DNA of 64,000 nucleotides from Bdellovibrionales bacterium (GCA_965203275.1 OZ241865.1:256001-320000), one strand, 5' to 3'; positions 7,953 through 63,932 are shown, numbered from the stretch's first letter. Numbers and translations are program-made. The notes: generated by a model not told the origin, from the letters alone.

Positions 7953-8167
7953 AGTTTCACTAAAAGTAAACTAGCCTCTGGCTACTTTTGGACATTGCTC
8001 TGACAGCTATCGCTGTCCAAAAAGAGCAATGTCTCAAAAGTCCGTTTACTTTTAGTAGGGAGGATATCCTCGTCTCTTAACTACATGTTAAGGAAAAAGT
8101 TCCTTCTGTTTCACTAAAAGTAAACGGACTTTTGAGGTTGGCCAGCAGTGATGAAGGAACTTTTTCT
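7953..8167 (-). repeat. Family 1 structured repeat: one full copy (core 7959-8056) plus an inverted fragment
   Basis: 13-bp outer stem ACTAAAAGTAAAC/GTTTACTTTTAGT enclosing nested hairpins. Strand given is the inferred folded strand. Confidence 0.9.
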
Positions 8168-8569
8168 TTATTTTTTAACTAGTATTTTTATAATCTTATC
8201 TAGTCTATTTTCTACCCTATTAATATCACTTTTTAACTCTTCTTTTACTTTATTAATCTTGGTAGGAATATGGTTATTTACTTGTTCCTTAATAGGGTTT
8301 ATTTCTTTTTTAATAGGTCCTATCTCTTTTTTTATCGGGTCTACTGAAGAATGTATTATAACCCTTAAAACAATAATTGATAAAATGGCATTTATTATCT
8401 CTTTTGATGAATACAAATCTTGCAATCCAAAATAATTTACCACTATTAACAAAATAAACAAAACAAGGATAAAAAAACCTGTATATCCTTTTAGCAATGA
8501 TGAAAATATATCCAGTGGTGATGATTGATTATTTTCTGGCCCGTTGCCATTACCTGAATGATCATTCAT
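8168..8569 (-). CDS. TM plus coiled-coil protein (NH[IL] family)
   Basis: Two hydrophobic segments, heptads PIKKEIG/PIKKEIN, INPIKEQVNNHIPTKI, RLDKIIKIL; start follows GAGG. Confidence 0.75.
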   Translation of the reverse strand: MNDHSGNGNGPENNQSSPLDIFSSLLKGYTGFFILVLFILLIVVNYFGLQDLYSSKEIINAILSIIVLRVIIHSSVDPIKKEIGPIKKEINPIKEQVNNHIPTKINKVKEELKSDINRVENRLDKIIKILVKK

Positions 8570-8670
8570 AAAATCCTCTTTCAAAAGCTATATTCACAAA
8601 AAAAAGAGGCTATCAAGCCACTTTAAGCTTATGAATTTATCTACAATCTACGACCATAGAAATTAATATT

Positions 8671-8699
8671 AGAATATCAATCCTAAAGGATTTTGTCAA
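8671..8699 (-). promoter_or_regulatory. sigma70-type promoter
   Basis: Minus strand TTGACA-N17-TATTCT; the -35 context TTGACAAAATCC is identical to the promoter at 1456. Confidence 0.5.
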
Positions 8700-8883
8700 T
8701 ATGACGATAAGAGTCATATCAATTCTTCTTATCTCTAAAGATTGAATAGTTTAATTTTGTACTCAATTTATTATGTTATTCAGACCACTTATGAGGATAA
8801 GTGGTCTTTTTTAGCAACTTTACTAAACGTTGTCGAAATTTTGATGTTTTGAAGCTTAAAAATAGCCTTGAAACATTGAATAT

Positions 8884-9720
8884 TTCCTTAACATTTCACT
8901 CAAAATGAGCTGGCCTCTGGCCACTTTTAGGTTGCCAGCAGTGATGAAGGAACTTTTTCCTTAACATGTAGTAAAAAATGAAGGCTTCCTCCTTACTAAA
9001 AATAAACGGATTTTTGAGGCATTCAGCCTTTTATCGACGGCGAGAGCCGAGAGGTGTAAGAATGAACTTTTTCCTTAACATTATGTTAAAAAATGAGGAG
9101 ATCCTCCCTACTCAAAATGAGCAGTTTTTTGTGGCATTGCTCTTTTTAGACAGCGTAAGCTGTCAGAGCAATGCCCAAAAACACACCAGAGGTGTGGCTC
9201 ATTTTGAGTGAAACAAACGGCTGGTTTATTTTTAGTGAAACAAACGCGGTCATTGTCCAAAAGTGGCCAGAGGCCAGTTCACTTTGAGTGAGCCAACTTC
9301 TCCAGGCTCCCACTGCCCTCATCCTCCCCCTAATTATTTTTTGTTTGAGTTTACGCAGAATCTAAAAGAGAATAAAAAAAAACAAAAAAAGGAAATCTTT
9401 TTCCTTAACTTTTCACTCAAAATGAACTGGCCTCTGGCCACTTTTGGGTAGCCAGCCCGACGGCTCACGCCGTCGTAAAAGGCTGGCTACCTCAAAAGCT
9501 TGTTCATTTTGAGTAGAGGAGGATCCTTTTATTCCTTTACACCATGTTAAGGAAAACAGTTTGCGAATAAAACTCTTTTTCCTTAACATGGAGTAAAAAA
9601 ATGAGGAGATCCTCCCTACTAAAAGTAAACGGACTTTTGAGGCATTGCTCTTTTTAGACAGCGTATAGCTGTCAGAGCAATGTCCAAAAGTGACCAGAGG
9701 TCAGTTTACTTTTAGTGCAA
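8884..9720. repeat. Family 1 cluster: three full cores (9110-9209, 9415-9514, 9618-9716), one split copy and fragments in both orientations
   Basis: Same helix architecture with different, compensated stem sequences. Confidence 0.9.
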
Positions 9721-9724
9721 AAAA

Positions 9725-9871
9725 TCTGAAAGATTCTTGATTTGGTAAATGTACGAAATTAGATGATAATAGATTCAAGGAGGGGAAATTTTGAGGGAAA
9801 CAGTACACGTATCTCTGAAAAAGGTACGTACGGGTAGCCGAAAACACACGAAATTAGATAATGGAAGGCCC
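9725..9871 (+). repeat. Family 2 dispersed repeat (~147 bp)
   Basis: Aligns end to end with the reverse complement of 61189-61334 and 61436-61581. Confidence 0.85.
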
Positions 9872-9873
9872 AA

Positions 9874-11097
9874 ATGGTAATGTTTGAGTATAAAGGACTT
9901 ACTAAGCAAGGCAGGAACACTCATGGTACAGTGGAAGCTGACAGTATTCGGATGGCTCAGACCAAGCTGAAGCGAGATGGTATTTTTGTTGTAGATATCA
10001 AAAGTAAAAGAAAGGCTGCAGGTAAAAAATCTTCTAAAGTTCAAAGCCGGAAGGCTTCTACAGAAGATATGTCCTTAATGACTAGACAGTTAGCTACTCT
10101 TTTAAAAGCTGACATCCCTCTTGTTGAAACCTTAGGAGCTGTGAGTGAGCAAGTAGAAAATTCTGCACTTAGAGAAGCTCTTTCAGAGATAAGAAATCAA
10201 GTGACAGAGGGTCAAGCTTTGCATAAATCTCTAAAAAAATATCCTCACTTTTTTAATAAAATTTATGTTTCTATGTGTGAAGCTGGCGAAATGTCAGGTA
10301 CATTGGATATCATTTTATTACGTTTAGCAGAATTTGCCGAAGCAGAGGATCAGCTAAATAAAAAAATCAAATCGGCCATGCTTTATCCTATTATTATGTT
10401 GGTTTTTTCACTTATTGTCTTAGTTGTGCTTTTCATTTATGTGATTCCTAAGATCACAACAATTTTTGAACAATCACCAGACCTGACACTCCCTTGGTAT
10501 TCTGAAATGGTTATCAATTTTAGTGAGTTTTTAGTCAATTATTGGCTCATTGTATTTATAGGAGCTTTTGGAGCATATTCATTATTTCATCTTTGGAAAA
10601 AAACACCTACAGGTTCTGTCACTTGGGATAAAATCTTTCTTAAAATCCCTCTTGTAGGGCATTTAGCCCGCATGATTGCTGTCAGCCGTTTCACACGGAC
10701 TCTTTCAACTCTTTTAACTGGAGGTGTTCCTATGTTGCAGTCTTTAGATATCGTTAAAAATGTAGTGAATAACTCTGTTCTAGCAGAAGCCATTGAAAAT
10801 TCTAGGGATAATATCAGTGAAGGAGAATCCATTGCAGCTCCTTTAAAAAAATCAGAACAGTTTCCTCCTATTGTGATTCACATGATCAATATTGGTGAAA
10901 AAACAGGCGATCTTGAAAATATGCTCACACAGGTTTCAGATGCCTTTGATTTTCAAGTCAAAACTAAAGTGGAGGGATTGACAAGTTTACTTGAGCCAAT
11001 TTTTATTATATTCATAGGGCTTGTCATTGCAGTGATTGTGATGTCTATTATGGTCCCTATTTTTGAGTTATCCAATGTTGGTACTGGAACACCGTAA
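9874..11097 (+). CDS. gspF: Type II secretion inner-membrane platform protein F
   Basis: TRQLATLLKA, AGEMSGTLD, SAMLYP, SRFTRTLSTLL, GEKTGDLE, LLEPI. Confidence 0.88.
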   Translation: MVMFEYKGLTKQGRNTHGTVEADSIRMAQTKLKRDGIFVVDIKSKRKAAGKKSSKVQSRKASTEDMSLMTRQLATLLKADIPLVETLGAVSEQVENSALREALSEIRNQVTEGQALHKSLKKYPHFFNKIYVSMCEAGEMSGTLDIILLRLAEFAEAEDQLNKKIKSAMLYPIIMLVFSLIVLVVLFIYVIPKITTIFEQSPDLTLPWYSEMVINFSEFLVNYWLIVFIGAFGAYSLFHLWKKTPTGSVTWDKIFLKIPLVGHLARMIAVSRFTRTLSTLLTGGVPMLQSLDIVKNVVNNSVLAEAIENSRDNISEGESIAAPLKKSEQFPPIVIHMINIGEKTGDLENMLTQVSDAFDFQVKTKVEGLTSLLEPIFIIFIGLVIAVIVMSIMVPIFELSNVGTGTP

Positions 11098-11130
11098 ATC
11101 ATAGACCATAAACCATAGGCCATAGACCAT
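11098..11130. repeat. Short heptamer tandem (CCATAGA-like) between convergent genes
   Basis: atcatagaccataaaccataggccatagaccat. Confidence 0.6.
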
Positions 11131-11152
11131 TTTAAAAACACCTGCCAGGCGA

Positions 11153-12580: not shown

Positions 12581-12815
12581 AAGAACTCCCATAAAAACTC
12601 CTGTACACTCCTTTACATAAACATAAAATACATAAAAAGTCTTTATAACAAGCCTTATAAATTCTGTCAAGTACCTTTTGTGTTATTTTTTCTTTTGATT
12701 TAAAGGGGAATATTAAAATACACAAGTGATTCTTATGGTTTATGGCTTTATTCTTTTTAAAATTCTTTTTAAAAATACTCCTCTGCCCACATCATGCCAA
12801 CTTTATTTTGCTAAG

Positions 12816-14171: not shown

Positions 14172-14225
14172 ATAGTACTCTGCCTTAAAAATACATTTAT
14201 TTCAAGAGGATATTCTAAATGTGAT

Positions 14226-16471: not shown

Positions 16472-16560
16472 TTTTATACCTTTAAAAATCTTAATAATAT
16501 TTTCAATTTAAAAAGACTCTTATTTAAAAAGCTTTTTAAAAGTGCTATCTTATAAATTCT

Positions 16561-16845: not shown

Positions 16846-18321
16846 ATGCCACGTATCACAAGTTTTGAAAATATAAGAGCAAATTCCCATATTCACCTAA
16901 TGGGCATCTGTGGTACAGCTATGGCTAGCTTAGCAGGCTTACTCCAACAAAAAGGTTTTCAGGTCACTGGAAGCGATCAAAATATTTATCCGCCTATGTC
17001 GACACAACTTCAAAAATTAAATATTCCTATCGTCGAACAATTACAAAACCTAAAATCACTACCAGATATCGTTATTGTGGGCAATGTTATGACACGAAAA
17101 CATGCAGAAGTGGAATTTTTACTTAACTCGCGAATTCCATACACTAGCCTACCAGAAATGATAGGTCAGTTGCTTATCGATCAGAAAAAAAGCATTGTAC
17201 CTTGTGGCACTCACGGCAAGACAACTTGTACAGCTCTTTTAAGCTGGATTCTTAAAGCTTGCGATAAAGATCCAGGCTTTTTGATTGGAGGGATTCCTCA
17301 AAACTTTGAATTTTCTTTTCATTCATCTTCTGAAGATATTTTTGTGATTGAAGGCGACGAATATGATACAGCGTTTTTTGATAAAGTCCCTAAGTTCACT
17401 CATTATAAACCTCAATATGTGATCCTGACATCCATTGAAATGGACCACATAGATATTTACCCTGATTTCAATGCAGTTAAGGTAGCCTTTCAACAACTGC
17501 TCAGAATAATCCCAACAAAAGGTCTTCTTGTAGCTAACGGGGAAGATCCTGTTGTGTGTGACATGCTTAAAATGGCACAATGCCCTTATTTTCTTTATGC
17601 TCTCTGTCGTGAAAAATCTTATAAGCCACCACATTATTGGGTAGAAAATATCCAAAAGCAAAAAGAAGGCATTAGCTTTGAGGTGCTATCTTCTGATAGC
17701 AGTAAAAATATAACCCTTGAGCTTTCTCTTTTTGGTCATCACAATATAGCAAATGCCCTCGCTGTGTATGCCCTTATTGCAGAAATGCCTTTTGCCCTTT
17801 CAAAAAAGGCTATTCAAAAAGCCTTTAAAACTTTTTTAGGTGTTAAAAGAAGGCAAGAAATTATTGGAAGAGCTGGAGGTATTGTGGTGATAGATGATTT
17901 TGCCCACCACCCCACGGCTGTTAAACAAACCATACAGTCTGTTCAAGAACATTTTAAAGGGGAGAAGGTGATTTCTATTTTTGAACCTCGATCAGCAACA
18001 TCTCGTAGGGCTATTTTCCAACAAGAGTATGTCGATGCTTTTGTAGATGCTCAGTTTGTGATCCTATCTGATGTCTATAAAAAAGACATGCTAGCTTTAG
18101 ATGAAAGACTAAATATTGAAAAACTTGTTTTAGATATTCGAAATAAACAAACAAATAGGCAGAAGGTATTTGCAACAAAAAGTATAGAAGATATTATTCG
18201 TTTAACTCGTCAAAATGTATGTAAAGGAGATGTTGTTTTAATTATGAGCAATGGAGGGTTTCAAGGGTTTCATTCAAAGCTATTATCTGCTTTAAAAAAC
18301 AAGTATTATAAACAAAATTAA
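16846..18321 (+). CDS. mpl: Murein peptide ligase
   Basis: HLMGICGTAMASLA, YPPMS, GTHGKTT, EGDEYDTAFFDK, DDFAHHPTAV, FEPRS, MSNGGF. Confidence 0.93.
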   Translation: MPRITSFENIRANSHIHLMGICGTAMASLAGLLQQKGFQVTGSDQNIYPPMSTQLQKLNIPIVEQLQNLKSLPDIVIVGNVMTRKHAEVEFLLNSRIPYTSLPEMIGQLLIDQKKSIVPCGTHGKTTCTALLSWILKACDKDPGFLIGGIPQNFEFSFHSSSEDIFVIEGDEYDTAFFDKVPKFTHYKPQYVILTSIEMDHIDIYPDFNAVKVAFQQLLRIIPTKGLLVANGEDPVVCDMLKMAQCPYFLYALCREKSYKPPHYWVENIQKQKEGISFEVLSSDSSKNITLELSLFGHHNIANALAVYALIAEMPFALSKKAIQKAFKTFLGVKRRQEIIGRAGGIVVIDDFAHHPTAVKQTIQSVQEHFKGEKVISIFEPRSATSRRAIFQQEYVDAFVDAQFVILSDVYKKDMLALDERLNIEKLVLDIRNKQTNRQKVFATKSIEDIIRLTRQNVCKGDVVLIMSNGGFQGFHSKLLSALKNKYYKQN

Positions 18322-18997
18322 TTATTTTTTGTTTGAGATTTATGCAGAATCTAAAAAGAATAAAAAAAACAAAAAAATACAAACATTTTGTTTATCCGGG
18401 ATCTGGGAACTGAGAGATGGGAACCGGCAACCCGGGATCTGGTTTTAAAGCATTGATTGTAATGAATTTTTGCATCTAAAAAATTTCCTCCTGAGCCCTT
18501 GGCGGGTTTAAAAAGGACTTTTTCCTTAACATGGAGTAAAAAAATGAGGAGATCCTTTCTACTCAAAGTGAACAGGCTTTTGAGGCGATGACCATTTTGT
18601 CAACGGCGAAAGCCGTTGCGGTCATCGTCCAAAAGTGACCAGAGGTCAGTTCACTTTGAGTGAAACAAAGGCATGATGCATTTTGAGTGAAAATGACGGC
18701 TAGACCACTTTTAGTGAAACAAAACAAGCTGATAAATTAGGAGCTTTTTTATATAAACTGTGTAAAAATACTTAAAGTTAAAATTGATCTTTTCCGGAAT
18801 CCGGGATCCGGGATCTGGGATCCGGCAAGCGGGCAACCCGGCAACAAAAGGAACTTTTTCCTTAACATCGTGTTAAGAAACGAAGAGATCCTCTCTACTC
18901 AAAATGAGCAGTTTTTTGCGGCATTGCTCTTTTTAGACAGCGTAAGCTGTCAGAGCAATGCCCAAAAACACACCAGAGGTGTGGCTCATTTTGAGTG
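18319..18997 (+). repeat. Repeat cluster: A-rich module, heptamer blocks, two full Family 1 cores (18561-18661, 18897-18996) and stacked end fragments
   Basis: The core at 18897 matches the core at 9110; 18319-18378 matches 9331-9390. Confidence 0.9.
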
Positions 18998-19000
18998 GAA

Positions 19001-19792
19001 TCAAATGCTGGAACCAAAAGTGACTTGTCTTTGAGGGCAATAAGCATTCGGGTCATCTATTCTTTGAACAACAACATCCATATATACATAAAGCGAACCA
19101 TTAGGAGTGTTATGTCCTCCAGTAAAACTTGCACCTATCTGAGGATTTACAGGAGAAATACTCACTATTTCACCATAAGAGCCATAAGCTAAGAGTTCAT
19201 AATTTCCAAAATTTGCTCCTTGCAAAGTGGCCTGTCCAAATTGATTATCTGATTGAACTTGATAAGGTATATTAGGCTCTATGTAACAAGGGTCATAACC
19301 ATATCCATATCCATGTCCATAACCGCCTCTGTCATAAGCACCACCATGTCCATAGCCACCTCTGTCATAACCACGACCATAACCACTTCTGCTGTAGTAG
19401 CCAGTAGGATTGATCAAGTCACTAAAAACCACTTCACCTCTTATATCTACAGGTCCGTTTCTTCCATTTTGTCCATATCCATATCCGCTTCCATATCCAT
19501 TTCCATAGCTGTTGCCATAATTGCCATGAAGAGGCAAAAACTCTAAGCGAATTTCATGTCCATTGTTATTGTATCCGATATAAACATCACTACCAAAATA
19601 ATGACCACCAGAGTAATGACCACCACCAGCTCTATAACCAAGATGGCTAAATCGGCCTTGTTTGTTTTTCCCACAGCCAATAGGGGAAGCTACTATAATT
19701 ATTGCAAAGAGAGCTAATATCCCCCTGCGACACAAGGTACTGTTTTTAACAGATGCAATATTTTTAATGACAGATTGACTTAAGCTTTTCAT
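19001..19792 (-). CDS. Gly/Tyr-rich lipoprotein
   Basis: Lipobox PIGC, GYG and YDRGGYGHG repeats, AGGAG RBS. Confidence 0.75.
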   Translation of the reverse strand: MKSLSQSVIKNIASVKNSTLCRRGILALFAIIIVASPIGCGKNKQGRFSHLGYRAGGGHYSGGHYFGSDVYIGYNNNGHEIRLEFLPLHGNYGNSYGNGYGSGYGYGQNGRNGPVDIRGEVVFSDLINPTGYYSRSGYGRGYDRGGYGHGGAYDRGGYGHGYGYGYDPCYIEPNIPYQVQSDNQFGQATLQGANFGNYELLAYGSYGEIVSISPVNPQIGASFTGGHNTPNGSLYVYMDVVVQRIDDPNAYCPQRQVTFGSSI

Positions 19793-19879
19793 AACTTTTA
19801 CTCCTTAATAATATTTTTACTTAATATTCTCTTTTTATTTATTTATTGCCTTATTTATTTTTTAATCCATCTAATCCGT

Positions 19880-20905
19880 TTAATCCGTGCTAAAAGGTAA
19901 AGTAATTCCTGCATCTGATGGCACTAAGTTTTCAAAATGACCTATAGAGATATAGCGTCCCTGTGTTGTCGCACCCGGATGAATGATAGAGCTTGTATCA
20001 ACCCTTGCATGTCTCCCACCATCTCTGGTTAAGTCCACAACAAAGGCACGACAGTCATGCACATTAAAGCCAGCACCATGTTCAAAATCATGGAGTCCAG
20101 CAGGTAAAACCCAGCAATGACTTCCACCTGTAAAGTAAGGGGCAGCACCACAGCCAAACCATGGCCATGTATTAGTCACTGAACACCTTCTTCTATCAAA
20201 TTCTTTGAAGAATACTTCACCTGTCAGAGCATAGTTGTCACCACGAGGGTAAGCCACCACAATCAATGCTCCACCTTCAATTTCAAAAAAGAGTTTAATA
20301 TAATGCTCACCATTATCTACATCAATTCTACGATTATTGTTTTTATCATGTGTAACCCAATGATTATAAGGGATTTGACTAGCATTTGTAGACGCTTCAC
20401 CTTCTGCTTCATTGATTTCATCATCATATTCATTATAAAAGCCAAGACGGATATCTCCTCCATAAAGAGACTTTGTATTTCCACCGACTTTGGACAATGC
20501 CAAGTTAATCTGAATATTTGCAATGTGATCTGTATTAAGAGACATAACATCTGCAAAATCTTCAAAATTTGATGTCTGAGTCAATCGTGCAGTTGCTCCA
20601 TCGGACCAAAGTGTACAATCAGGGATAGATAAATCAGGATTGTTATGATCACATTCGTCACTACTAGTATCACGATCACGATGATCATCATCATCGTCCT
20701 CATTACGACGTTCATCTTCTTCACAGTTTCGTTGAGATCCATCGCATCTGGTACGATTCACAGGACGACGATCCGTATTACTATAACGATCGGTATGACT
20801 ATAATAAGGATTGTCAAAATAAGGTGCTGCCTGTTGAGAACAAGCAATTCCAACAACAGATAAACCGAATAACATACATAAAACTAGTAAAACCCTAATG
20901 ACCAT
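19880..20905 (-). CDS. Hypothetical lipoprotein
   Basis: Lipobox GIAC, Asp/Arg-rich linker, GAGG RBS. Confidence 0.75.
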   Translation of the reverse strand: MVIRVLLVLCMLFGLSVVGIACSQQAAPYFDNPYYSHTDRYSNTDRRPVNRTRCDGSQRNCEEDERRNEDDDDDHRDRDTSSDECDHNNPDLSIPDCTLWSDGATARLTQTSNFEDFADVMSLNTDHIANIQINLALSKVGGNTKSLYGGDIRLGFYNEYDDEINEAEGEASTNASQIPYNHWVTHDKNNNRRIDVDNGEHYIKLFFEIEGGALIVVAYPRGDNYALTGEVFFKEFDRRRCSVTNTWPWFGCGAAPYFTGGSHCWVLPAGLHDFEHGAGFNVHDCRAFVVDLTRDGGRHARVDTSSIIHPGATTQGRYISIGHFENLVPSDAGITLPFSTD

Positions 20906-24621: not shown

Positions 24622-24639
24622 AAAACCTTCGTACGTTTT

Positions 24640-25490
24640 TTTCCCTAAAATTGAACTAGCCTCTGGCTACTTTTGGGCAGTTAGCCCGACGGCTCACGCC
24701 GTCGATCAAAGGCTAACTGCCTCAAAAGCTTGTTCAATTTTAGGAAGGAGGATCTCTCCGTCTCTTAACACCATGTTAAGGGTTTGTTTCACTAAAAGTA
24801 AACTAGCCTCTGGCTACTTTTGGATAGCCAGCCCGACGGCTTTCGCCGTCGATCAAAGGCTGGCTACCTCAAAAGTCCGTTTACTTTTAGTAGGGAGGAT
24901 CTCTTCGTCTCTTAACACCATGTTAAGGGTTTGTTTCACTAAAAGTAAACTAGCCTCTGGCTACTTTTGGATAGCCAGCCCGACGGCTCACGCCGTCGAT
25001 CAAAGGCTGGCTACCTCAAAAGTCCGTTTACTTTTAGTAAGGAGGATCTCTTCGTTCCTTAACACCATGTTAAGGGTTTGTTTCACTAAAAGTAAACTAG
25101 CCTCTGGCTACTTTTGGATAGCCAGCCCGACGGCTTTCGCCGTCGATCAAAGGCTGGCTACCTCAAAAGTCCGTTTACTTTTAGTAGGGAGGATCTCTTC
25201 GTCTCTTAACACCATGTTAAGGGTTTGTTTCACTAAAAGTAAACTAGCCTCTGGCTACTTTTGGATAGCCAGCCCGACGGCTTTCGCCGTCGATCAAAGG
25301 CTGGCTACCTCAAAAGTCCGTTTACTTTTAGTAGGGAGGATCTCTTCGTCTCTTAACACCATGTTAAGGAAAAAGTTCCTTTCTTACATCTGTTGCCTGC
25401 AAAGGCTTACGCCTTTGCGGTCATTGCCCAAAAGTAGCCAGAGGCTAGACCACTTTTAGTGAAACAGAGGCTGGTTTATTTTTAGTGCAA
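24640..25490 (-). repeat. Family 1 tandem array of 5 x 147 bp followed by two inverted end fragments
   Basis: Cores start at 24644, 24791, 24938, 25085 and 25232. Confidence 0.95.
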
Positions 25491-32713: not shown

Positions 32714-33526
32714 CTAAATAAGATTAAGCTTTGAGAGTGCAACCAAAGCACTCAATGCAATGATCAATAAAGAACCTAACTTGACAACTAACCTGAGTTC
32801 TAACTCTTTAAATCCATGTTCTATTCTATGAATAGACTCTTTTATCTTTATATTGTCTTTTTCTAATGATTTAATGTCTTTCCTCATTTCTATAATATCT
32901 TTTTTGATTTCTTGATTGCTATTTTCTAATACTTTGATGTCTTTTCTGATTTCTACAATGTCTTGTTTCGTTTCTGTGATATCTTTTTTCATTTCTACAA
33001 TGTCTTTTCTGATTTCTACAATGTCTTGTTTCGTTTCTGTGATATCTTTTTTCATTTCTACGATTTCTTTTCTGATTTCTACAATGTCTTGTTTCGTTTC
33101 TGTGATGTCTTTTTTCATTTCTACAATGTCTTTTTTGATTTCTACAATGTCTTGTTTCGTTTCTGTGATGTCTTTTTTCATTTCTACAATGTCTTTTTTA
33201 ATTTCTTGATTGCTACTTTCTAATACTTTAATGTCTTTTCTAATTTCTACGATGTCTCTTTTGATCTCTTGATTACTGTTTTCCAGTTCTTTGATGTCTC
33301 TTTTGATCTCTTGATTGCTGTTGTCTAATGCTTTGATCTCTCTTTTGATTTCTTGATTACTGTTGTCTAATAATCTGGCTTGATTTGTCATACTTAAAAT
33401 TTCTCTTTTAGTAGCCAAATCAGATTCGATGATGTCATTTAGAACACGCACTTGGGCCTTTGCCTGTTGATCAGGCACACCGGCAATTTTTAAATCTTCT
33501 ACATATTTTAGTGCATTAAATCCCAT
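32714..33526 (-). CDS. DUF1640/CCDC90-like coiled-coil protein with expanded heptad repeats and a C-terminal TM anchor
   Basis: FNALKYVEDLKIAGVPDQQAKA, LATK, (DIVEIRK-DIVEMKK-DITETKQ)n, ELRLVVKLG. Confidence 0.82.
   Translation of the reverse strand: MGFNALKYVEDLKIAGVPDQQAKAQVRVLNDIIESDLATKREILSMTNQARLLDNSNQEIKREIKALDNSNQEIKRDIKELENSNQEIKRDIVEIRKDIKVLESSNQEIKKDIVEMKKDITETKQDIVEIKKDIVEMKKDITETKQDIVEIRKEIVEMKKDITETKQDIVEIRKDIVEMKKDITETKQDIVEIRKDIKVLENSNQEIKKDIIEMRKDIKSLEKDNIKIKESIHRIEHGFKELELRLVVKLGSLLIIALSALVALSKLNLI
32940..33200 (-). repeat. Intragenic 63-bp (3 x 21 bp) tandem repeats
   Basis: ttctacaatgtcttgtttcgtttctgtgat recurs every 63 bp. Confidence 0.9.
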
Positions 33527-45640: not shown

Positions 45641-46955
45641 TCTCACTAAAAATAAACCAGCCTCTGGCTGTTTTTGGGCAATCAGCCCGACGGCTTATCG
45701 CCGTCGATCAAAGGCTGATTGCCTCAAAAATCCGTTTATTTTTAGTAGGGAGGATCCCCTCATTTCTTTACACCATGTTAAGGAAACAAGATATTCGCTT
45801 CATCCCTTCTGTCTGCCAGATCCCGGAAGAATATCCTTTTGTTTTTTAACACAGTGTTAGAAATCAAATTTTATTTTCACTAAAAGTAAACTGACCTCTG
45901 GTCACTTTTGGACATTGCTCTGACAGCTTACGCTGTCTAAAAAGAGCAATGTCTCAAAAGTCCGTTTACTTTTAGTAGGGAGGATCTCCTCATTTCTTTA
46001 CACCATGTTAAGGAAACAAGATATTCGCTTCATCCCTGCCTGTCTGCCAGATCCCGGAAGAAGATCCTTTTGTTTTTTAACACAGTGTTAGAAATCAAAT
46101 TTTATTTTCACTAAAAGTAAACTGACCTCTGGTCACTTTTGGACATTGCTCTGACAGCTTACGCTGTCTAAAAAGAGCAATGTCTCAAAAGTCCGTTTAC
46201 TTTTAGTAGGGAGGATCTCCTCATTTCTTTACACCATGTTAAGGAAACAAGATATTCGCTTCATCCCTGCCTGTCTGCCAGATCCCGGAAGAAGATCCTT
46301 TTGTTTTTTAACACAGTGTTAGAAATCAAACTTTAAGCCTTCCATTATGATCATTAATGCACTTTTTATAGGCTTAATTTAAAATTTTCAATAAGTCACT
46401 TTATTTTTCAATGTAAACCAGCCTCTGGCTGTTTTTGGGCAATCAGCCCGACGGCTCTCGCCGTCGATCAAAGGCTGATTGCCTCAAAAATCCGTTTATT
46501 TTTAGTAGGGAGGATATCCTTATTTCTTTACATCATGTTAAGGAAACAAGCTATTCACTATATTCACTCCCGGGATCTGATGCCTGACTGCCAGATCCCA
46601 GAAGAAGATCCTTTTGTTTTTTAACACAATGTTAGAAATCAAATTTTATTTTCACTAAAAGTAAACTGACCTGGTCACTTTTGGACATTGCTCTGACAGC
46701 TTACGCTGTCTAAAAAGAGCAATGTCTCAAAAGTCCGTTTACTTTTAGTAGGGAGGATCTCCTCATTTCTTTACACCATGTTAAGGAAACAAGATATTCG
46801 CTTCATCCCTGCCTGTCTGCCAGATCCCGGAAGAAGATCCTTTTGTTTTTTAACACAGTGTTAGAAATCAAACTTTAAGCCTTCCATTATGATCATTAAT
46901 GCACTTTTTATAGGCTTAATTTAAAATTTTCAATAAGTCACTTTATTTTTATGTA
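45641..46955 (-). repeat. Family 1 higher-order array of five cores with ~90-bp linkers (A-B-B-tail-A'-B-tail)
   Basis: Cores at 45645, 45879, 46110, 46414 (clipped) and 46654; tail 46331-46410 is repeated at 46873-46950. Confidence 0.92.
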
Positions 46956-47256: not shown

Positions 47257-47631
47257 ATGGATTGGATTGTTAAAATATTTGAAACTACAGATTTAATGAC
47301 AATCATTGCCATGTCTATTATTGGCTTTTTTCTTTATAACAGAGCGACCAGATCTTTTAAGGAACAGATAAATCAATCAAATGATAACTTAAAGGAACTA
47401 ATAAAACAATCGGATAATAACTTAAAGGAAATGATAAAACAATCAGAAACTAACTTAAAAGATCTATTAATTACTCTAATTGATCCTATCAAAGAACAAG
47501 TATACAATCATATACCCACACAGATCAGAGAAGTAGACAGGAAGTTTGATCAAAAGTTTGATCGTCTATTGGAGATTTTAATTGACAAAGATAAAGCTGT
47601 GGAAAAAAAGGACTTAAAAAAAAATGACTAA
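47257..47631 (+). CDS. TM plus coiled-coil protein (NH[IL] family), copy 1
   Basis: AGGAGG RBS, IDPIKEQVYNHIPTQI, FDRLLEIL. Confidence 0.85.
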   Translation: MDWIVKIFETTDLMTIIAMSIIGFFLYNRATRSFKEQINQSNDNLKELIKQSDNNLKEMIKQSETNLKDLLITLIDPIKEQVYNHIPTQIREVDRKFDQKFDRLLEILIDKDKAVEKKDLKKND

Positions 47632-47640
47632 GGAGGTGTT

Positions 47641-48057
47641 ATGGATTGGATTGTTAAAATATTTGAAACTACAGATTTAATGACAATCATTGCTATGTCT
47701 ATTATTGGCTTTTTTCTTTATAACAGAGCGACCAGATCTTTTAAGGAACAGATAAATCAATCAAATGATAACTTAAAGGAACTAATAAAACAATCAAATG
47801 ATAACTTAAGGGAAATGATAAAACAATCAGATAATAACTTAAAGGAAATGATAAAACAATCAGAAACTAACTTAAAAGATCTATTAATTACTCTAATTGA
47901 TCCTATCAAAGAACAAGTATACAATCATATACCCACACAGATCAGAGAAGTAGACAGGAAGTTTGATCAAAAGTTTGATCGTCTATTGGAGATTTTAATT
48001 GACAAAGATAAAGCTGTGGAAAAATCAGATGCCAAAGAGCATGAAAAGCCCGTATGA
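47641..48057 (+). CDS. TM plus coiled-coil protein (NH[IL] family), copy 2 (tandem duplicate)
   Basis: Near-identical to copy 1, with one extra 33-bp unit and a different tail. Confidence 0.85.
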   Translation: MDWIVKIFETTDLMTIIAMSIIGFFLYNRATRSFKEQINQSNDNLKELIKQSNDNLREMIKQSDNNLKEMIKQSETNLKDLLITLIDPIKEQVYNHIPTQIREVDRKFDQKFDRLLEILIDKDKAVEKSDAKEHEKPV

Positions 48058-53511: not shown

Positions 53512-53512
53512 G

Positions 53513-55887: not shown

Positions 55888-56138
55888 ATTATTATCTTCT
55901 TATTTTTTGGTTTTGATATATTTTTAAAGTGTTTAAACTGCAATGTAAATTCTAAAACTAAAAGGTATTTCTTAAGACAATCAATATTTAATTATGCTTC
56001 TTCATCCTGATCATAGCTATCATAGACTGAAAGCATTTATATATTATTTTATGAAGAGGATTTTTTCAACTTCTTTCCTGGAAATTTCTTAAAACTTAAA
56101 TTGTTTATATTATTGTGGGGATCACATCTCAACACACT

Positions 56139-57062: not shown

Positions 57063-57177
57063 AAAACTCCTAGAAGTCCTCTCAAAAATAAATTATACAA
57101 CACTTATTTGCTAATTGAATGCTCTTTTTATGATCTCTTAGGCTGTCAGACAGTCTGGTAACCTCCATATCTGATGG

Positions 57178-57747
57178 CTATTCTTCAAAAGACAGAATAA
57201 CACTTTTGCCATTTCTGAAATTGCGAACCCAAGAGATAATTTGACGATTTTGATTTATATTAAAAACATCACTTTCAACCTTTTGACTCAAGTGGTATTT
57301 GATGAGCATGCCATCAGGTGTTTGGTCTAGAGAAGAGCCACAAGCTTGTCTTCTAGCTAGGGCAGATAGCTCCATAACAGCAGCTCTTAAAGCTGTTTGC
57401 TCTCTTTGAGGATTAATATCTGGATAGCGTACAAAACCTTTGTTATTAGCATGTGGATGTTCTGGTAAGTAACGATTAATGTATTTAGCTTCTTTGGCAA
57501 TATAGCAATTTTTACGGTGACATCTTAATATAAGGGCTTGATAAGGTTCTCCAGAAGGTGTTTTTGTCACACGAAAATGGCGTAAGTTAGAACCATGTAC
57601 ACTCACCCTTAAAAAAGATTTTTTAAGATCTCTGCAAGCTATATCTGTTACATTTGATAGAGGAGTCCTCCTATCTATTGCAGCCATAGCTGGATGGGTC
57701 AACCCTATAATTAAAAAGATATAAATAAGTTTCCGATATGTTACCAT
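57178..57747 (-). CDS. Secreted protein with a FlgC-like segment
   Basis: Signal peptide (AMA-A); TPSGEPYQ and YLPEHPHANNKGFVRYPDIN resemble the flagellar rod protein FlgC. Confidence 0.55.
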   Translation of the reverse strand: MVTYRKLIYIFLIIGLTHPAMAAIDRRTPLSNVTDIACRDLKKSFLRVSVHGSNLRHFRVTKTPSGEPYQALILRCHRKNCYIAKEAKYINRYLPEHPHANNKGFVRYPDINPQREQTALRAAVMELSALARRQACGSSLDQTPDGMLIKYHLSQKVESDVFNINQNRQIISWVRNFRNGKSVILSFEE

Positions 57748-57810
57748 TGTGATTATGCCTTTGAATATAAAATATCAAATATGCAACAAAGTGACAAGTA
57801 GGCAATGGTT

Positions 57811-59103: not shown

Positions 59104-59180
59104 CTATTGAATCCTTTTATTCTTTTATTGTATCGAATATTAGAAGGGGACGACTAGAATAGGATAAGTCTAGTTTTTCT

Positions 59181-59770
59181 TTTCACTAAAAGTGGGCTGT
59201 TTCCCTAAAATTGAACTAGCCTCTGGCTACTTTTGGGCAGTTAGCCCGACGGCTACCGCCGTCGATCAAAGGCTAACTGCCTCAAAAGCCTGTTCAATTT
59301 TAGGAAGGAGGATCTCTTCGTTTCTTAACACCATGTTAAGGAAACAAAATGCCTTTTCTGCTTGATGCCCTCAAAAGCCTGTTCAATTTTAGGAAGGAGG
59401 ATCTCTTCGTTTCTTAACACTATGTTAAGGAAACAAAATGCCTTTTCTGCTTGATGCCCTCAAAAGCCTGTTCAATTTTAGGAAGGAGGATCTCTTCGTT
59501 TCTTAACACTATGTTAAGGAAACAAAATGCCTTTTCTGCTTGATGCCCTCAAAAGCCTGTTCAATTTTAGGAAGGAGGATCTCTTCGTTTTTTGACCACA
59601 TGTTAAGGAAACAAAATATTCATTTCACCCCGGGATCCGGCAAACAGGCATCCGGACCCCGGGATATGATCCCGGATCCTGGATAAACATCATGTTAAAG
59701 AAACAAAGTGTTCGCTTTATCCCTGCCTGTCTGCTTGATGCTGGGTTGCCGGATTGCCGGGTCCCAAATC
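59181..59770 (-). repeat. Family 1: end stub, full core (59204-59303), 89-bp half-unit tandem and heptamer block
   Basis: CTCAAAAGCC recurs at 59281, 59370, 59459 and 59548. Confidence 0.92.
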
Positions 59771-60249
59771 ATGGAGAAAAACCATTATATTAAAAACTAA
59801 TGTTCAATTCTGACCCATTAGCAAAATTTTATATCTCTACCACCCTGATGGGTCTCTAACGTGAAAAATAATTTTCCCCTAAAATGTTGCATATTAATGA
59901 AACATAATACGTAATCCACTCATTTGATCTAAAAAATATAAGTAATTTCAAATACTTAATACTGTAACTTTTATACAAAAGTCACAGTCACAATATGTTT
60001 TTAGCTTAAAATATGTAGTGTCTTGATAAAAACTTATACTTTTATAGCTTTACCCTTTCTTTTTTAAGATGAAAGGGGTTGTTTGGAGGATAAGGTCTTT
60101 TTTATGACCTCTATGCCTCTTTATAACTCTCTTTAAAAATTATAAAAGTCAATTTTTCAAAGCCATTAATACTCATATTATTTGCATTATAAAATATATA
60201 ATTGCATAATAAAAAACAATATATTGCATAATACAATATCATTTCACTA

Positions 60250-60281
60250 GAAGTGACCAGAGGTCAGACCACTTTTAGGAA
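60250..60281 (+). repeat. Family 1 end fragment overlapping the tadA stop codon
   Basis: AAGTGACCAGAGGTCAGACCACTTTTAG matches the end of the 63788 copy (reverse complement). Confidence 0.8.
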
Positions 60282-60733
60282 AAAGAAGATCGAATTTCTT
60301 GAAAGAAATTTTTTAATATAAGGCTACATTCTTTTTCTAAGATACCACTGACTACTTCTGGTCTATGATTAAGTCTTTGATCATTTAAAACTTGATAAAG
60401 GGAAAAAACAGCCCCTGTTTTAGGATCCAATGCTCCTATCACTACTTTTGAGATACGTGATTGCAAAATAGCTCCTCCACACATCAAGCAAGGCTCTAAT
60501 GAGACAAAAAGTGTGCATCCTGATAACCGCCAAGTTGCCAGTTTTTGTGCAGCCTTTTGAATGGCTAAAATTTCAGCATGTCCTGTAGGTTGATGGCTAC
60601 TTTCTTTTTGATTAAAGGCCCTAGCTAAAATTTCATCATCTTTTGTAATAATAGCCCCTACAGGGACTTCCTTAAGATCAAAAGCTTTTTGAGCTTCTAA
60701 CAAGGCTAATTTCATACCTTCTTCATTTTTCAC
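60275..60733 (-). CDS. tadA: tRNA adenosine(34) deaminase
   Basis: EVPVGA, HAEI, LEPCLMCGGA, DPKTGA, LNH, FF. Confidence 0.93.
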   Translation of the reverse strand: MKNEEGMKLALLEAQKAFDLKEVPVGAIITKDDEILARAFNQKESSHQPTGHAEILAIQKAAQKLATWRLSGCTLFVSLEPCLMCGGAILQSRISKVVIGALDPKTGAVFSLYQVLNDQRLNHRPEVVSGILEKECSLILKNFFQEIRSSFS

Positions 60734-60903
60734 ATCTCACCCTTTTTTATAAAGAAGTTTCAAGTCCAAAGTTTTATATAATAAAATATTTATATTTTAA
60801 GGCACTTGAAAGCATAAGTGAATATTCTTTTAACCATATAAGAATCTAGGGGTGTCTTATGGGAAATAATATTTTATAAACTTAAAATCATAAGGAGAAA
60901 ATA

Positions 60904-61188
60904 ATGAACTTACAAAAACCACAACAAGTCAATCATCTACAAGAAAGCCATTTACCAAAAACATCTATAGATGAATCTTATTTTACAATGCATGTCCATG
61001 CTGAGCATGTTCATGCTAAGCATGTTCGTGCTGAGTCTATTTATACTCAACAGTTTGTTTGTGAGCAATGTGGACAAAAAAACTCTTTTATTTATAAGGT
61101 TAATAGCTCCTACAGTCAAATTCAAGAACAAACTCACTGCAAAAGCTGTCATTTTAAAAGCCATTTTAAAAAGTTTATTTTGCAATAA
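60904..61188 (+). CDS. Small putative zinc-binding protein with a His-rich repeat
   Basis: AAGGAG RBS, HVHAE-HVHAK-HVRAE, CEQC...CKSC. Confidence 0.6.
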   Translation: MNLQKPQQVNHLQESHLPKTSIDESYFTMHVHAEHVHAKHVRAESIYTQQFVCEQCGQKNSFIYKVNSSYSQIQEQTHCKSCHFKSHFKKFILQ

Positions 61189-61770
61189 GGACCTTCTATT
61201 GTCTAATTTCGTGTGTTTTTGTCTATCCGTACGTACCTCCTTCAGAGATACGTGAACTATTTCCCTCAAAATTTCCCTTCCTTGAATCTATTATTTCTAA
61301 TTTCGTACATCCACCAGATCAAGCTTCTTTCAGAGAATAGGAAGGTCAATTTTGAGGTGATCGGCTAGAATCTCATTGCATAACATCCTATATCCATACT
61401 CTTTGTTGTACATATTATTCTCAACCCTTCATTAAGGGCCTTCTATTGTCTAATTTCGTGTGTTTTTGTCTATCCGTACGTACCTCCTTCAGAGATACGT
61501 GAACTATTTCCCTCAAAATTTCCCTTCCTTGAATCTATTATTTCTAATTTCGTACATCCACCAGATCAAGCTTCTTTCAGAGAATAGGAAGGTCAATTTT
61601 GAGGTGATCGGCTAGAATCTCATTGCATAACATCCTATATCTATACTCTTTGTTGTACATATTATTCTCAATCCTTCATTAAGGGCCTTCTATTGTCTAA
61701 TTTTGTTAATTTTTTTTCTAACTTCGATGATTTTTGTCTACCCGTACGAACCTTTTTTAGAAATACGTGC
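61189..61770 (-). repeat. 247-bp tandem duplication containing Family 2 repeats, plus a diverged partial third copy
   Basis: CCTTCTATTGTCTAATTT at 61192, 61439 and 61686. Confidence 0.92.
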
Positions 61771-61774
61771 GTTG

Positions 61775-61860
61775 GTTCACTAAAAGTAAACTGACCTCTG
61801 GTCACTTTTGGGTTGCCAGTTCCCAGATCCCGGATCCCAGATCCCGGATCCTGGATAAAC
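61775..61860 (-). repeat. Family 1 end fragment fused to a heptamer block
   Basis: TTCACTAAAAGTAAACTGACCTCTGGTCACTTTTGG followed by GTTGCCAG and (GATCCCR)n. Confidence 0.85.
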
Positions 61861-61880
61861 ACATACTTTTTGATACAAGA

Positions 61881-63587
61881 TTATTTTTTTAAGATAATCA
61901 AAGTTTGGTTTTTTTCTAAAATAGCTTTTTCTACTTCTTTTGTCGATAATGTGTAGTTTTTATACCCTGCCATTTTTAAGGTAATGGGTTTGTTCTTTAA
62001 AAATGTGATTTGTCTAGGAGTTCTTTTGTAAGACCAAACACCATCTATAAAAATTTTAGCTCCTTCTGGAGTGCTTGAGATAAATAAAGTAATGGAAGGC
62101 ACAGGTGTTTTTGCTGTCTGAGATGCCATCTCTTTATTCTTAGGACTTAACATATCTTTAAGTGTTTTAAACATGGAAGTTGTATTTTCTGTCCACTTTG
62201 TTATTTCTTTTTCTGTCTCTTCCGGATGTGTGATCTTAAAATAAAGCAATGAAGAAATACCTGTTGAAAAAATTAAAAATAAACCTATTTGCAAGACAAG
62301 AGAGAAATCTATTCTTTGGATTTTTTTATGATAAGGTTCGTAGTTTGTCTTAATATAATGCTTCTTTCTTGCATAATTTTCTGACTTTTGATGATGATTA
62401 TTATTAGATGAAGCAGAAGGTATTGTTTTAAAATGAATAGACTTAGATGCTTCTGATGCTGTGTTTTGATCAAATAAAACTCTAGAAACTGCTAGATTAC
62501 GTTCTTGATCTGATTCTGCTAGAAAACTATTATTAACAGTAATGGTTTCTGTTTTTTCTTCAACTTCAATGTTCTTTTCTAACAAAGCTTTTTGTATGAT
62601 CTCATCAATTTCCTTAAAGTCGCTTGTATAAGCCTTTTTAATTTTATCACCTAATTGCACCGGACTAAAGTCAGGATCCCACGAACATTTTTTAAGCAGT
62701 TGAGAAAGTTCTTCATGGAGTTCTTTTGCTGAAAATCTTAAGTTTTTATCTCTTACAAGAGCTTTTTTAACAATTTTTTCTACTTCTTTGACATGTTGCT
62801 GTGGAATATTTAATTTTGATTTGGATTCATTATTCATTTGTTCTAATGAAGGAATATGAGCCTCTTTTACTTTTAAAAGAATCTTATTGGCATTTTTAGC
62901 ATAAAATAAACGATCCTTAGCAAGAATTTCCCAAAGTACAACACCTAAAGAAAAAACATCTGTCTTTTGATCTATCTCAAATCCTTCAGCTTGTTCTGGA
63001 CTCATATAATTAAATTTACCTTGCAGTGTGTTCGCTCGCATATTGGCTGGTTGAAATGGATTATTAGAACGTGTTTTGGATATGCCAAAATCAATTAATT
63101 TCACCTCTCCTTCCACATTGATCATCACATTTTGAGGACTAATATCACTGTGTACAATGTTGAGTTTTTCATTTGTTTTAGGATGAATAAATGTGTGTGC
63201 ATAATACAAACCAGATGCCATTTCTTTAGTAATATAAATTTTCTCTGCAAATGTGAGGTCAGTTTTTTTGGAATAAAAGTCTTTTAAAATTTGTCTTAAA
63301 TTTTTCCCTTTAATAAATTCAAGGGCTAAAAATAAATGCTTTTGTTTTTTTTTATTTCTATGAGCAGGATACACAATAGCAATGTTTTTATGCTTCATAT
63401 ACTTTACAATATCTTGCTCAGCTTCAAACATTTTAGCAAAATCTATGTTAGAAGAATAAGCATCCGATATAGTTTTAATAGCCAGAATCTCATTATCGGA
63501 GGATTTAGCCAGATAAATCTCTGCCATGCCCCCCTTACCAATCTGGTGTAACAAAGTATATCTATCAAATTTTTTGTTGACTTCCAT
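61881..63587 (-). CDS. Membrane Ser/Thr protein kinase with a C-terminal PEGA domain
   Basis: IGKGGMAEIY, AIK, HSDISPQN, DFG, YMSPEQ, DVFSLG, TM helix, STPEGAKIFIDG. Confidence 0.92.
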   Translation of the reverse strand: MEVNKKFDRYTLLHQIGKGGMAEIYLAKSSDNEILAIKTISDAYSSNIDFAKMFEAEQDIVKYMKHKNIAIVYPAHRNKKKQKHLFLALEFIKGKNLRQILKDFYSKKTDLTFAEKIYITKEMASGLYYAHTFIHPKTNEKLNIVHSDISPQNVMINVEGEVKLIDFGISKTRSNNPFQPANMRANTLQGKFNYMSPEQAEGFEIDQKTDVFSLGVVLWEILAKDRLFYAKNANKILLKVKEAHIPSLEQMNNESKSKLNIPQQHVKEVEKIVKKALVRDKNLRFSAKELHEELSQLLKKCSWDPDFSPVQLGDKIKKAYTSDFKEIDEIIQKALLEKNIEVEEKTETITVNNSFLAESDQERNLAVSRVLFDQNTASEASKSIHFKTIPSASSNNNHHQKSENYARKKHYIKTNYEPYHKKIQRIDFSLVLQIGLFLIFSTGISSLLYFKITHPEETEKEITKWTENTTSMFKTLKDMLSPKNKEMASQTAKTPVPSITLFISSTPEGAKIFIDGVWSYKRTPRQITFLKNKPITLKMAGYKNYTLSTKEVEKAILEKNQTLIILKK

Positions 63588-63639
63588 ATATTTATAAACA
63601 CTCCATGCCTATTGAGTATATTTCTTCTTTTCCTTAATT

Positions 63640-63666
63640 CCATCGGATAAAAGAGCTAAAATCTTA
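63640..63666 (-). promoter_or_regulatory. sigma28-like promoter
   Basis: Minus strand TAAG-N15-TCCGATGG upstream of the kinase. Confidence 0.35.
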
Positions 63667-63699
63667 AGTCAGATAAGGTCTAGCTTTTATTTCACTCCT

Positions 63700-63932
63700 T
63701 TGTTTCACTAAAAGTAAACCAACCTCTGGTTGCTTTTGGACAGTTAGCCCGACGGCTCTCGCCGTCGATCAAAGGCTGAGTTGTTTCACTAAAAGTGGTC
63801 TGACCTCTGGTCACTTTCTGGCGATGACCACGATGGCTTTCGCCATCGGTAAAATGGTCATCGCCTAGAAAGCCTGACCACTTTTACTAGAAAGGATCTC
63901 TTCGTTTCTTAACACCATGTTAAGGAAACAAG
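63700..63932 (-). repeat. Family 1: truncated copy (63708-63778) joined to a full copy (core 63788-63888)
   Basis: Same architecture; stem variants GGTC/GACC and CTTTCT/AGAAAG. Confidence 0.9.

Follow-up and report, generated by a model that had tools for sequence, protein, structure and literature searches.

A branched intergenic repeat and its copies

The DNA considered here, referred to as the window, is a stretch of 64,000 nucleotides from Bdellovibrionales bacterium (GCA_965203275.1, OZ241865.1) that spans positions 256,001-320,000 of a single 2.57-Mb contig with 35% G+C. It harbors copies of a repeat of ~147 bases, family 1, whose apical loops and mismatched pairs favor one strand. That strand, X, reads CCTTAACA...GAAACAAA; the opposite strand is Y. 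The genome of the window is designated G000 (90% complete by markers) and a sister genome G001; G002, G003 and G004 belong to the same family.

G000 contains 1387 non-overlapping matches to a hidden Markov model of family 1, totaling 158,208 bases or 6.2% of the genome. Of 749 near-full copies, 673 were parsed for loops and helices and 76 were not. No copy is centered in an open reading frame (ORF) of at least 150 residues once repeat-rich frames are excluded, and the repeat is non-coding. Rfam gave no match at the gathering threshold in the window and none that was credible at E up to 5 for two copies. G001 holds at least 144 pattern matches and G004 holds 4-5. A search of the order's 298 remaining genomes, G002 and G003 among them, did not find the repeat, which is thus present in 3 of 301; copy number within one family ranges from hundreds, through a handful, to none. 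Viral and metagenome contigs gave no match to the single exact pattern searched. An assembly artefact is excluded by four sequencing runs from three studies, in which summed contig depth is far higher over repeat bins (for example, ~1000 versus ~6 in run X4), one caveat being that the best-matching run may itself be the source sample. Several runs containing sequence of this genome are labelled sponge metagenome, relatives found for one of the encoded proteins belong to Bdellovibrionota records, and contigs of other strains end at repeats. A literature search found no paper on a palindromic intergenic repeat with secondary structure in Bdellovibrio.

On strand X, the repeat comprises a head hairpin, P1 (CCTTAACA, 3 bases, TGTTAAG), followed by a purine-rich linker and a three-way junction. 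P2 consists of 13 pairs and a terminal T·G. P3 consists of 6 pairs, a bulged A, 10 pairs, a T-rich one-sided bulge of 6-8 bases and 6 further pairs that carry the apical loop. P4 has 5-6 pairs and the loop AGA (658 of 673 copies), and an A-rich tail ends the element. Head and tail are unrelated, and P2 pairs position ~44 with 145. X has CTAC overlapping the foot of P2, and GTAG stands at the 3' foot of Y. Pairing holds in 94.1% of cells (25 copies, three genomes). Both sides change in 26 of 48 pairs, a count reached by 0 of 500 shuffles and compared with 5-7 pairs in slid controls; covariation is absent from P1 in the 25-copy alignment. The helices behave as exchangeable modules, with 47 common alleles in 263 combinations in G000. 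In copies of G001 (loci L015, L060) and G004 (loci L002, L009), additional 14-base hairpins are stacked as modules in the P4 loop, and the same relatives have a further arm at the P2/P3 junction, giving four-way variants.

A census of family 1 in the window, which sets the boundaries below in coordinates of the whole stretch, recovered the following parts.

7954..8098, minus strand: near-full copy, loop GATA
8074..8140, plus strand: 5' fragment with the P1 palindrome in common, head-to-head, with copy 7954..8098
8893..8939, minus strand: 3' fragment, tail fused to the opposite strand of a P1 head
8954..9049, plus strand: 5' partial copy, loop GAGA (read by eye)
9068..9215, plus strand: near-full copy, loop GTAA
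9245..9293, plus strand: 3' fragment
9410..9556, minus strand: near-full copy, loop GTGA
9576..9721, plus strand: near-full copy, loop GTATA, P3b G·T (copy 9618 of the earlier note discussed below)
18400..18850, plus strand: broken four-helix-bundle (TIGR02436) cassette, by eye against intact cassettes, boundaries approximate
18519..18667, plus strand: near-full copy, loop GAAA, P3b G·T (copy 18561 of that note)
18855..19000, plus strand: near-full copy, loop GTAA
23208..23389, minus strand: two P1 heads with heptamer tracts in between
24639..25374, minus strand: five-copy head-to-tail array, period 147 (the 24791 array of that note)
25385..25465, plus strand: two 3' halves from opposite strands in a fold-back fusion, with TTAC as reverse loop (25407-25410)
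45641..45788, minus strand: near-full copy, loop GATAA
45874..46018, minus strand: near-full copy, loop GTAA
46105..46249, minus strand: near-full copy, loop GTAA
46408..46548, minus strand: near-full copy, 3' end damaged, loop GAGA
46649..46791, minus strand: near-full copy, loop GTAA
59198..59346, minus strand: near-full copy, loop GGTA
59365..59613, minus strand: three 5' partial copies (model 1-72), period 89
60248..60283, plus strand: 3' fragment
61774..61819, minus strand: 3' fragment adjoining a heptamer tract
63701..63779, minus strand: 3' part (model 72-150), loop GAGA
63782..63930, minus strand: near-full copy, loop GAAA

The broken cassette at 18400..18850 runs in the order G-rich heptamer tract, leader, repeat replacing most of the ORF, ORF 3' end and second tract. 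The loops of the five-copy array are GTGA, GAAA, GTGA, GAAA and GAAA, and P3b G·T is present in its last four copies. On the strand that does not fold, the array also has an open frame of 228 codons (24773-25459, plus strand). A coding role for this frame was rejected, as only 150 of 673 copies keep the Y-strand frame open. Among tandem units, 24 of 71 are 147 bases long, and 17 of the 34 units that are a multiple of three are open on Y. Further intergenic repeat families cluster with family 1 at 61183-61676, 9730-9870, 18320-18390 and about 19370-20020 in the window; they include a 247-base duplicate, a T-rich/A-rich 60-mer and a stretch with high depth in other runs.

Strand polarity of loops and mismatched pairs

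An earlier note on this DNA, made from the sequence of the window, had claimed 20 apical loops of the form G..A on one strand, 16 of them GNRA and the others GATA, GGTA, GATAA and GTATA. Exactly the same 20 loops were recovered on X (five GAAA, five GTAA, three GTGA, three GAGA and the four single forms at 7954-8098, 59198-59346, 45641-45788 and 9576-9721, respectively). The strand bias is present in the larger copy set as well. Genome-wide, a G...A loop lies on X in 660 of 673 parsed near-full copies and the reverse T...C loop in none. The G...A loops comprise 384 GNRA and 218 GNYA (602 GNNA) and 58 five-base loops. By sequence, the 673 loops are GAAA (226), GGTA (87), GATA (83), GTAA (59), GAGA (55), GACA (48), GTGA (42), GAATA (30), GATAA (19), GTATA (8) and others (16), and the closing pair is C-G in 663. 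Among 614 tetraloops, the first position is constant in 604 and the fourth in 612, whereas positions 2 and 3 vary, with a purine at position 3 in 393 and a pyrimidine in 221. The motif is therefore GNNA, not the GNRA type originally named. Stem-by-loop combinations common to at least two copies make up 32 of 43 for G...A loops versus 2 of 10 otherwise.

One fragment (25401-25416) had been read as carrying a flipped loop. Its TTAC at 25407-25410 is a product of fusion rather than a flip inside an intact copy: its 5' half matches the 3' arm of another copy in reverse complement, indicating that two copies were joined through the palindromic apical stem. When apical hairpins across the genome are oriented by the 3' half that each carries, 5 of 778 have a reverse loop, and all five are such fusions. 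Loops of G001 and G004 also have A as last base, with no reversal in spite of ~22% divergence. Loop polarity is family-wide; a strict GC-GNNA-GC mini-hairpin is not. Relative to the earlier note, polarity is stronger for the loops and weaker for the wobbles.

Mismatches in helices are biased in the same direction. Among 26,920 helix cells, G·T outnumbers A·C (220 versus 72), A·G outnumbers C·T (59 versus 25) and G·G outnumbers C·C (16 versus 1). At the foot of P2, T·G is found in 669 of 673 copies and C·A never. None of the 47 common helix alleles needs G·T, and 220 G·T among 26,920 cells is low for an RNA family. The G·T pairs reported on X at copies 9618, 18561 and the 24791 array are present at the second pair of P3b (columns 67/112), which is G-U in 6 of 25 alignment rows; the three numbers are the first bases of helix P2 and serve as copy labels, not mismatch positions. 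The claim that wobbles lie on one strand holds as a bias and fails as a rule, since distinct position/type classes, recombinant arms included, number 24 for G·T versus 20 for A·C.

The difference between the two mismatches lies in their spread. Distinct single-mismatch haplotypes number 57 for G·T versus 24 for A·C (p 0.0003). Single-arm variants found in at least two copies number 21 versus 0, compared with singletons at 16 versus 8 (Fisher p 0.004). If a variant counts as spread only when it stands at separate loci with different flanks, 16 of 37 G·T variants have spread versus 0 of 8 A·C variants (p 0.037), and the same holds for all G-keeping variants (22 of 61) versus C-keeping variants (0 of 14; p 0.007). 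Taken with the near-equal classes, the spread test indicates that A·C pairs arise widely yet do not spread. The spread of G·T, and not A·C, variants points to selection on the folding of X at the copying step.

An energy model with strand-symmetric mutation classes was applied to the 2322 possible single-arm variants, 76 of which were seen. Destabilization of X as DNA gave a log-likelihood gain of 18.2, of X as RNA 13.3, and of both strands summed 0.1. C>A plus T>G changes exceed G>T plus A>C changes (16 versus 5; p 0.027), an asymmetry predicted by DNA parameters only and not by RNA parameters. A>G plus T>G changes likewise exceed T>C plus A>C changes (10 versus 2; p 0.039).

Orientation, insertion sites and possible partner genes

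Full copies nested in the body of an older copy lie on the same strand in 35 cases and on the opposite strand in none. Fusion to the opposite strand of a P1 head is seen for 71 of 995 tails, and 163 tails resume at the P4 loop. The outer copies of multi-copy regions are tails-out in 94 cases versus tails-in in 3. Orientation has no relation to transcription among co-directional regions (215 sense versus 192 antisense), and the outermost copy next to gene ends is antisense in 191 cases versus sense in 128. Terminator-like matches are found on both strands of the array, with no promoter-like site inside it. There is no replichore signal in G000, as judged by GC skew, fourfold-site skew, gene-strand bias, DnaA-box clusters and dif matches, which suggests heavy rearrangement, and strand runs along the chromosome are absent (233 unidirectional clusters, p 0.49). 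The idea that dispersed origins replace DnaA in replication was rejected, as dnaA is present in 13 of 13 genomes, G000 included.

Pairs of empty and filled sites, taken from paralogous genes and repeats, have a sharp A-rich tail with a few bases' likeness to the target, that is, microhomology on the 3' side. On the 5' side a leader varies from 10 to 50 bases. The target has lost 0, ~6, 11, 30 or 49 bases or gained a 10-base duplication, and no duplication is constant. The junctions seen are without a common CT, the site of cleavage near the hairpin in REP/RAYT systems. The sharp tail, the microhomology and the variable leader and target loss would fit target-primed copying of X from tail to head.

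Copies disrupt both Rpn and four-helix-bundle genes. Pfam identified 16 Rpn in G000. Full-length Rpn genes have a copy within 400 bases upstream in 11 of 19 and downstream in 15 of 19, compared with 30% and 42%, respectively, for genes with gaps of at least 200 bases. Rpn nuclease was dropped as the enzyme, as G003 has 16 Rpn and no repeat. An 85-member Rpn/YhgA family flanked by the repeat was likewise rejected, its number being inflated by frames that consist of repeat. The papers listed by a literature search on Rpn showed no link to repeats. Rpn/YhgA genes of G000 are split by the repeat just upstream of an internal ribosome-binding site and ATG at contig positions (C1) 893,121, 908,194, 1,707,815 and 2,025,558, and a small intragenic Rpn antitoxin would start at such an internal ATG (PMC10400941). 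Loss of SbcCD does not follow the repeat: of the five family genomes, only G001 was found to have sbcD.

Solo four-helix-bundle genes (TIGR02436), which we take to be kin of Avd, are multi-copy in exactly the repeat carriers among the five family genomes (14 in G000, 19 and 19 versus 0 and 0 in the non-carriers), which leaves them as the one lead to an enzyme. In a paralog cluster of G000, a copy lies at most 400 bases downstream of 11 of 11 genes, three of which are cut short by the copy itself, and the nearest copy is sense in 10. The G-rich heptamer tracts flanking the four-helix-bundle genes stand on X upstream of 207 of 960 heads versus 31 in reverse (181 of 325 tracts). A repeat that inserted into an Rpn gene brought a heptamer tract along. 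Against such a link, the gene occurs in 92 of 301 genomes of the order and the repeat in 3, none of the ~19 cassettes of G004 has a repeat within 700 bases, and five kin genomes are no test. We know of no catalytic role for the four-helix-bundle protein. No conserved neighboring enzyme was found beside its genes at 55 loci, and no literature was found that links these genes to heptamer repeats.

Other features of these genes were observed. The cassette consists of a 7/8-base repeat tract, a long hairpin over the ribosome-binding site, the ORF and a second tract (loci L021, L024, L073-L152). The repeat is inserted at the same spot, after ~codon 65, in four-helix-bundle genes of two species (G000 C1 ~573,335 and 2,498,107; G001 loci L049, L058 and L060), where the target resembles the tail of the repeat. 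Elsewhere in the Bdellovibrionota, an inverted copy of the gene's own 5' end often stands before it, and several unrelated genomes of the order have 9-15 copies.

Elsewhere, a serine-recombinase (resolvase-like) family has three long copies and many 5' remnants (G000 C1 1,034,771 and ~13 other places) and also occurs in G001 beside its IS200-like gene. The window further encodes small coiled-coil proteins with internal 21- and 33-base repeats (32714-33526, 1572-2006 and 47257-48057), with dozens of paralogs genome-wide, and a protein with a SocA-like Panacea antitoxin domain (387-968, minus strand).

Interpretation and comparison with known systems

On balance, we judge it somewhat probable that family 1 is a selfish mobile element that an enzyme copies by way of folded single-stranded X DNA. 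The repeat is probably non-autonomous, and the form of X is probably DNA rather than RNA. X would be released as a single strand, and the GNNA cap may nucleate folding and keep single-stranded DNA-binding protein (SSB) off. The 3' end of a nicked target would pair by a few bases with the A-rich tail of X, and a polymerase would then copy X from the tail towards the head and stop at varying points in the leader. The variable end could produce the observed target deletions or short duplications, and variants that spoil the fold of X would not be copied again.

Several observations weigh against this account. The enzyme scan, which covered selected families only, found no Y1_Tnp (PF01797) in either G000 or G004; G001 has one match, an IS200-like gene whose 3.4-kb locus contains no copy of the repeat. 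No reverse transcriptase (RT) domain RVT_1 was found in G000 or G004, nor any remnant of the G001 RTs in G000. Y-family polymerases were not found in G000, G001 or G004. Tyrosine recombinases number two in G000, one of them XerC/D-like and in the window, and none in G004. In G001, sampled over 456 kb around known matches with 63 of 70 unique copies parsed, the loops read by eye (n = 62) are 39 GNRA, 8 GNYA and 15 other, none reversed. T-A often closes them (22 of 63 by an imperfect script parse), which departs from the DNA mini-hairpin recipe. Same-strand nesting also follows from unequal crossover. Besides the position classes given above, the excess of G·T over A·C is not significant among recombinant mismatches (19 versus 13) or all singletons (26 versus 17; p 0.22), and the G001 haplotypes number 26 versus 15. 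A mirror term, in which Y is less stable, fits the energy model equally to a stable X and is inseparable from it. Single-arm changes on X start from C in 51 of 76 cases versus 12 from G, and strand-specific cytosine damage on exposed X could also give an excess of C loss; it cannot explain the whole pattern, because A>G plus T>G changes are in excess too. Finally, the copies are related and the counts overstate independence.

The earlier note had favored a single-stranded form over a symmetric cruciform. The symmetric cruciform is indeed disfavored, the model that sums both strands gaining only 0.1 versus 18.2. The argument reaches no further than the symmetric form, because cruciforms of diversity-generating retroelements (DGRs) carry a one-strand loop (PMC3240598). 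The note had also regarded RNA and single-stranded DNA as fitting alike; DNA fits somewhat better in G000, and the loops of G001 weaken a strict reading.

That X acts as RNA, as a short interspersed element (SINE)-like passenger of target-primed reverse transcription whose GNRA-like caps and G-U wobbles are selected in the transcript, is unlikely, if still worth serious weight. It would account for the sharp A-rich 3' end, the variable 5' end and the 3' microhomology. Of 399 unique cores, 372 fold better as X than as Y when taken as RNA (mean -2.8 kcal/mol). GNRA is the largest loop class (384 of 673), and in G001, where 39 of 47 GNNA loops are GNRA, often T-A-closed, there are three RT matches, one with a copy ~450 bases away. 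Set against this are the lack of RTs in G000 and G004 and of G001-RT remnants in G000, the 218 GNYA loops, the very few G·T cells and the poorer fit of RNA energies (13.3 versus 18.2), which predict neither a C>A/G>T nor a T>G/A>C asymmetry. There is also no Rfam match, no promoter-like site in the array and no sense bias.

A cruciform extruded in double-stranded DNA, with a protein touching the X arm only, as at DGR target hairpins and N4 promoters, seems rather improbable. Consistent with it, 501 of 673 loops are GRNA, the presumed Avd relative is present in 14 copies and strand runs along the chromosome are absent. DGR cruciforms carry one-strand 4-nt 5'-GRNA loops with any replication direction (PMC3240598). 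The summed energy of two strands, however, explains none of the variant spectrum, and the one-sided 6-8-base bulge and three-way junction would be costly to extrude on both strands.

It is very doubtful that the polarity is merely inherited and mutational, from an ancestral G...A loop whose arms are kept complementary by template switching and whose G·T pairs come from cytosine damage. The excess of changes from C, the near-equal position classes and the strong mosaicism, with 263 module combinations that imply much recombination, agree with it, but the loop diversified at positions 2 and 3 and not at 1 and 4, loops of G001 and G004 were never reversed at ~22% divergence, the bias is stronger among spread variants, and the A>G plus T>G excess is not from cytosine damage. 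Least credible of all is a host-kept role, be it as a stabilizer or terminator in the 3' untranslated region or in priming single strands from dispersed sites, as the phage G4 origin does. The identity of the commonest cap with the G4 mini-hairpin CGGCGAAAGCCG (PMC13037366), the terminator-like matches on both array strands and the flat GC skew speak for it; against it stand the antisense excess by gene ends (191 versus 128), the disrupted Rpn and four-helix-bundle genes, the presence of dnaA and a copy number that runs from hundreds to none within one family.

A more specific form of single-strand copying is speculative, and we hold it to be improbable as stated: the repeat would be a passenger of an undescribed strand-polar copy-in system without RT or Y1 HUH, in which a host polymerase copies single strands into nicked targets, the solo Avd-like four-helix-bundle protein is the trans factor, and the same route moves four-helix-bundle cassettes (92 of 301 genomes). 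The strand form would be G-rich heptamer tract, leader, folded cargo and A-rich tail.

For the question of how structured intergenic repeats spread without a cognate transposase, the ~750 full copies and 263 combinations in one genome allow a population-genetic test beyond the reach of small families. Variants that keep one strand foldable spread and their mirror images do not, which marks the substrate strand. The chemistry is narrowed to enzymes that act on folded single strands, with Y1 HUH, RT and integron integrase not found. If the link to heptamer-flanked four-helix-bundle cassettes is true, a widespread orphan protein family would gain a role and DNA mobility a new route.

Among known systems, SINE-like or group II intron-derived retroelements have in common with family 1 a fixed A-rich 3' end with microhomology and a variable 5' end, but an RT in trans is lacking (0 RVT_1 candidates in G000 and G004). 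Unlike miniature inverted-repeat transposable elements, the repeat has no terminal inverted repeats and no constant target-site duplication. Non-autonomous IS200/IS605 derivatives and integron attC sites are strand-specific folded single-stranded DNA substrates with conserved bulges. Unlike the former, which insert precisely 3' of a fixed tetra- or pentanucleotide without target loss, the repeat inserts imprecisely (target loss of 0-49 bases or a 10-base duplication) and is tracked by no Y1 TnpA; unlike the latter, it is tracked by no integron integrase and forms no cassette arrays, and where attC sites have RYYYAAC...GTTRRRY at their outer ends, an AAC/GTT pair is found here only in the 17-base P1 head. 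The bcr1 repeat of the Bacillus cereus group (~155 bp) is similar in size, in its branched fold with compensatory changes and in being mobile, with no known enzyme (PMC3184786). It differs in being transcribed and in having flanking 5-bp direct repeats; family 1 differs in its ~750 full copies, strict loop polarity, self-nesting and lack of a constant duplication.

The cap invites comparison with DNA mini-hairpins. According to PMC13037366, those of the form GC-GNNA-GC melt at 69.5-76.5 C (71-76.5 C for the GAAA, GACA, GATA, GTAA and GAGA variants), compared with 39 C for r(GCGAAAGC). The same source reports that CGGCGAAAGCCG binds SSB poorly and that a G to A change restores binding, and places mini-hairpins at single-strand origins of phages G4, St-1 and alpha3, at ssiA and at the N4 promoter. 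The d(cGNNAg) motif is named in a reference title of PMC3201870. The G000 cap follows this recipe, including GACA, GATA, GTAA, GAGA and GTTA (602 GNNA and 663 C-G of 673). Unlike the mini-hairpins at origins, it caps a dispersed repeat, and the G001 closing pair is often T-A. Unlike the RNA GNRA tetraloop, the G000 loop has no purine rule at position 3 (393 versus 221), while 39 of 47 GNNA loops in G001 are GNRA.

As with DGRs, a four-helix-bundle gene, presumably Avd-like, is multi-copy in the same genomes. Unlike DGRs, family 1 goes with no RT, template repeat or variable repeat, its loop size and second base are freer, and the hairpin itself is mobile. The DGR target hairpin of Bordetella phage BPP-1 resembles it in having a one-strand G..A tetraloop in DNA with replication direction irrelevant (PMC3240598).

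Lastly, family 1 differs from repetitive extragenic palindromic (REP) elements and REPINs in being a 147-base three-way junction rather than a 20-40-base hairpin, in that its X stem carries neither GTAG nor CGTC at the 5' foot, in lacking the Y1 transposase of REPIN-RAYT systems in G000 and G004 and in its imprecise target-side junctions. It resembles REP/REPIN/BIME-RAYT in its hundreds of intergenic palindromic copies, its clusters and tandem arrays and the importance of stem irregularities. Only the REP strand, and not the iREP strand, is bound and processed as folded single-stranded DNA (PMC8266576). Loop and mismatch polarity suggest that family 1 likewise presents one strand as substrate, a likeness of function rather than of membership.

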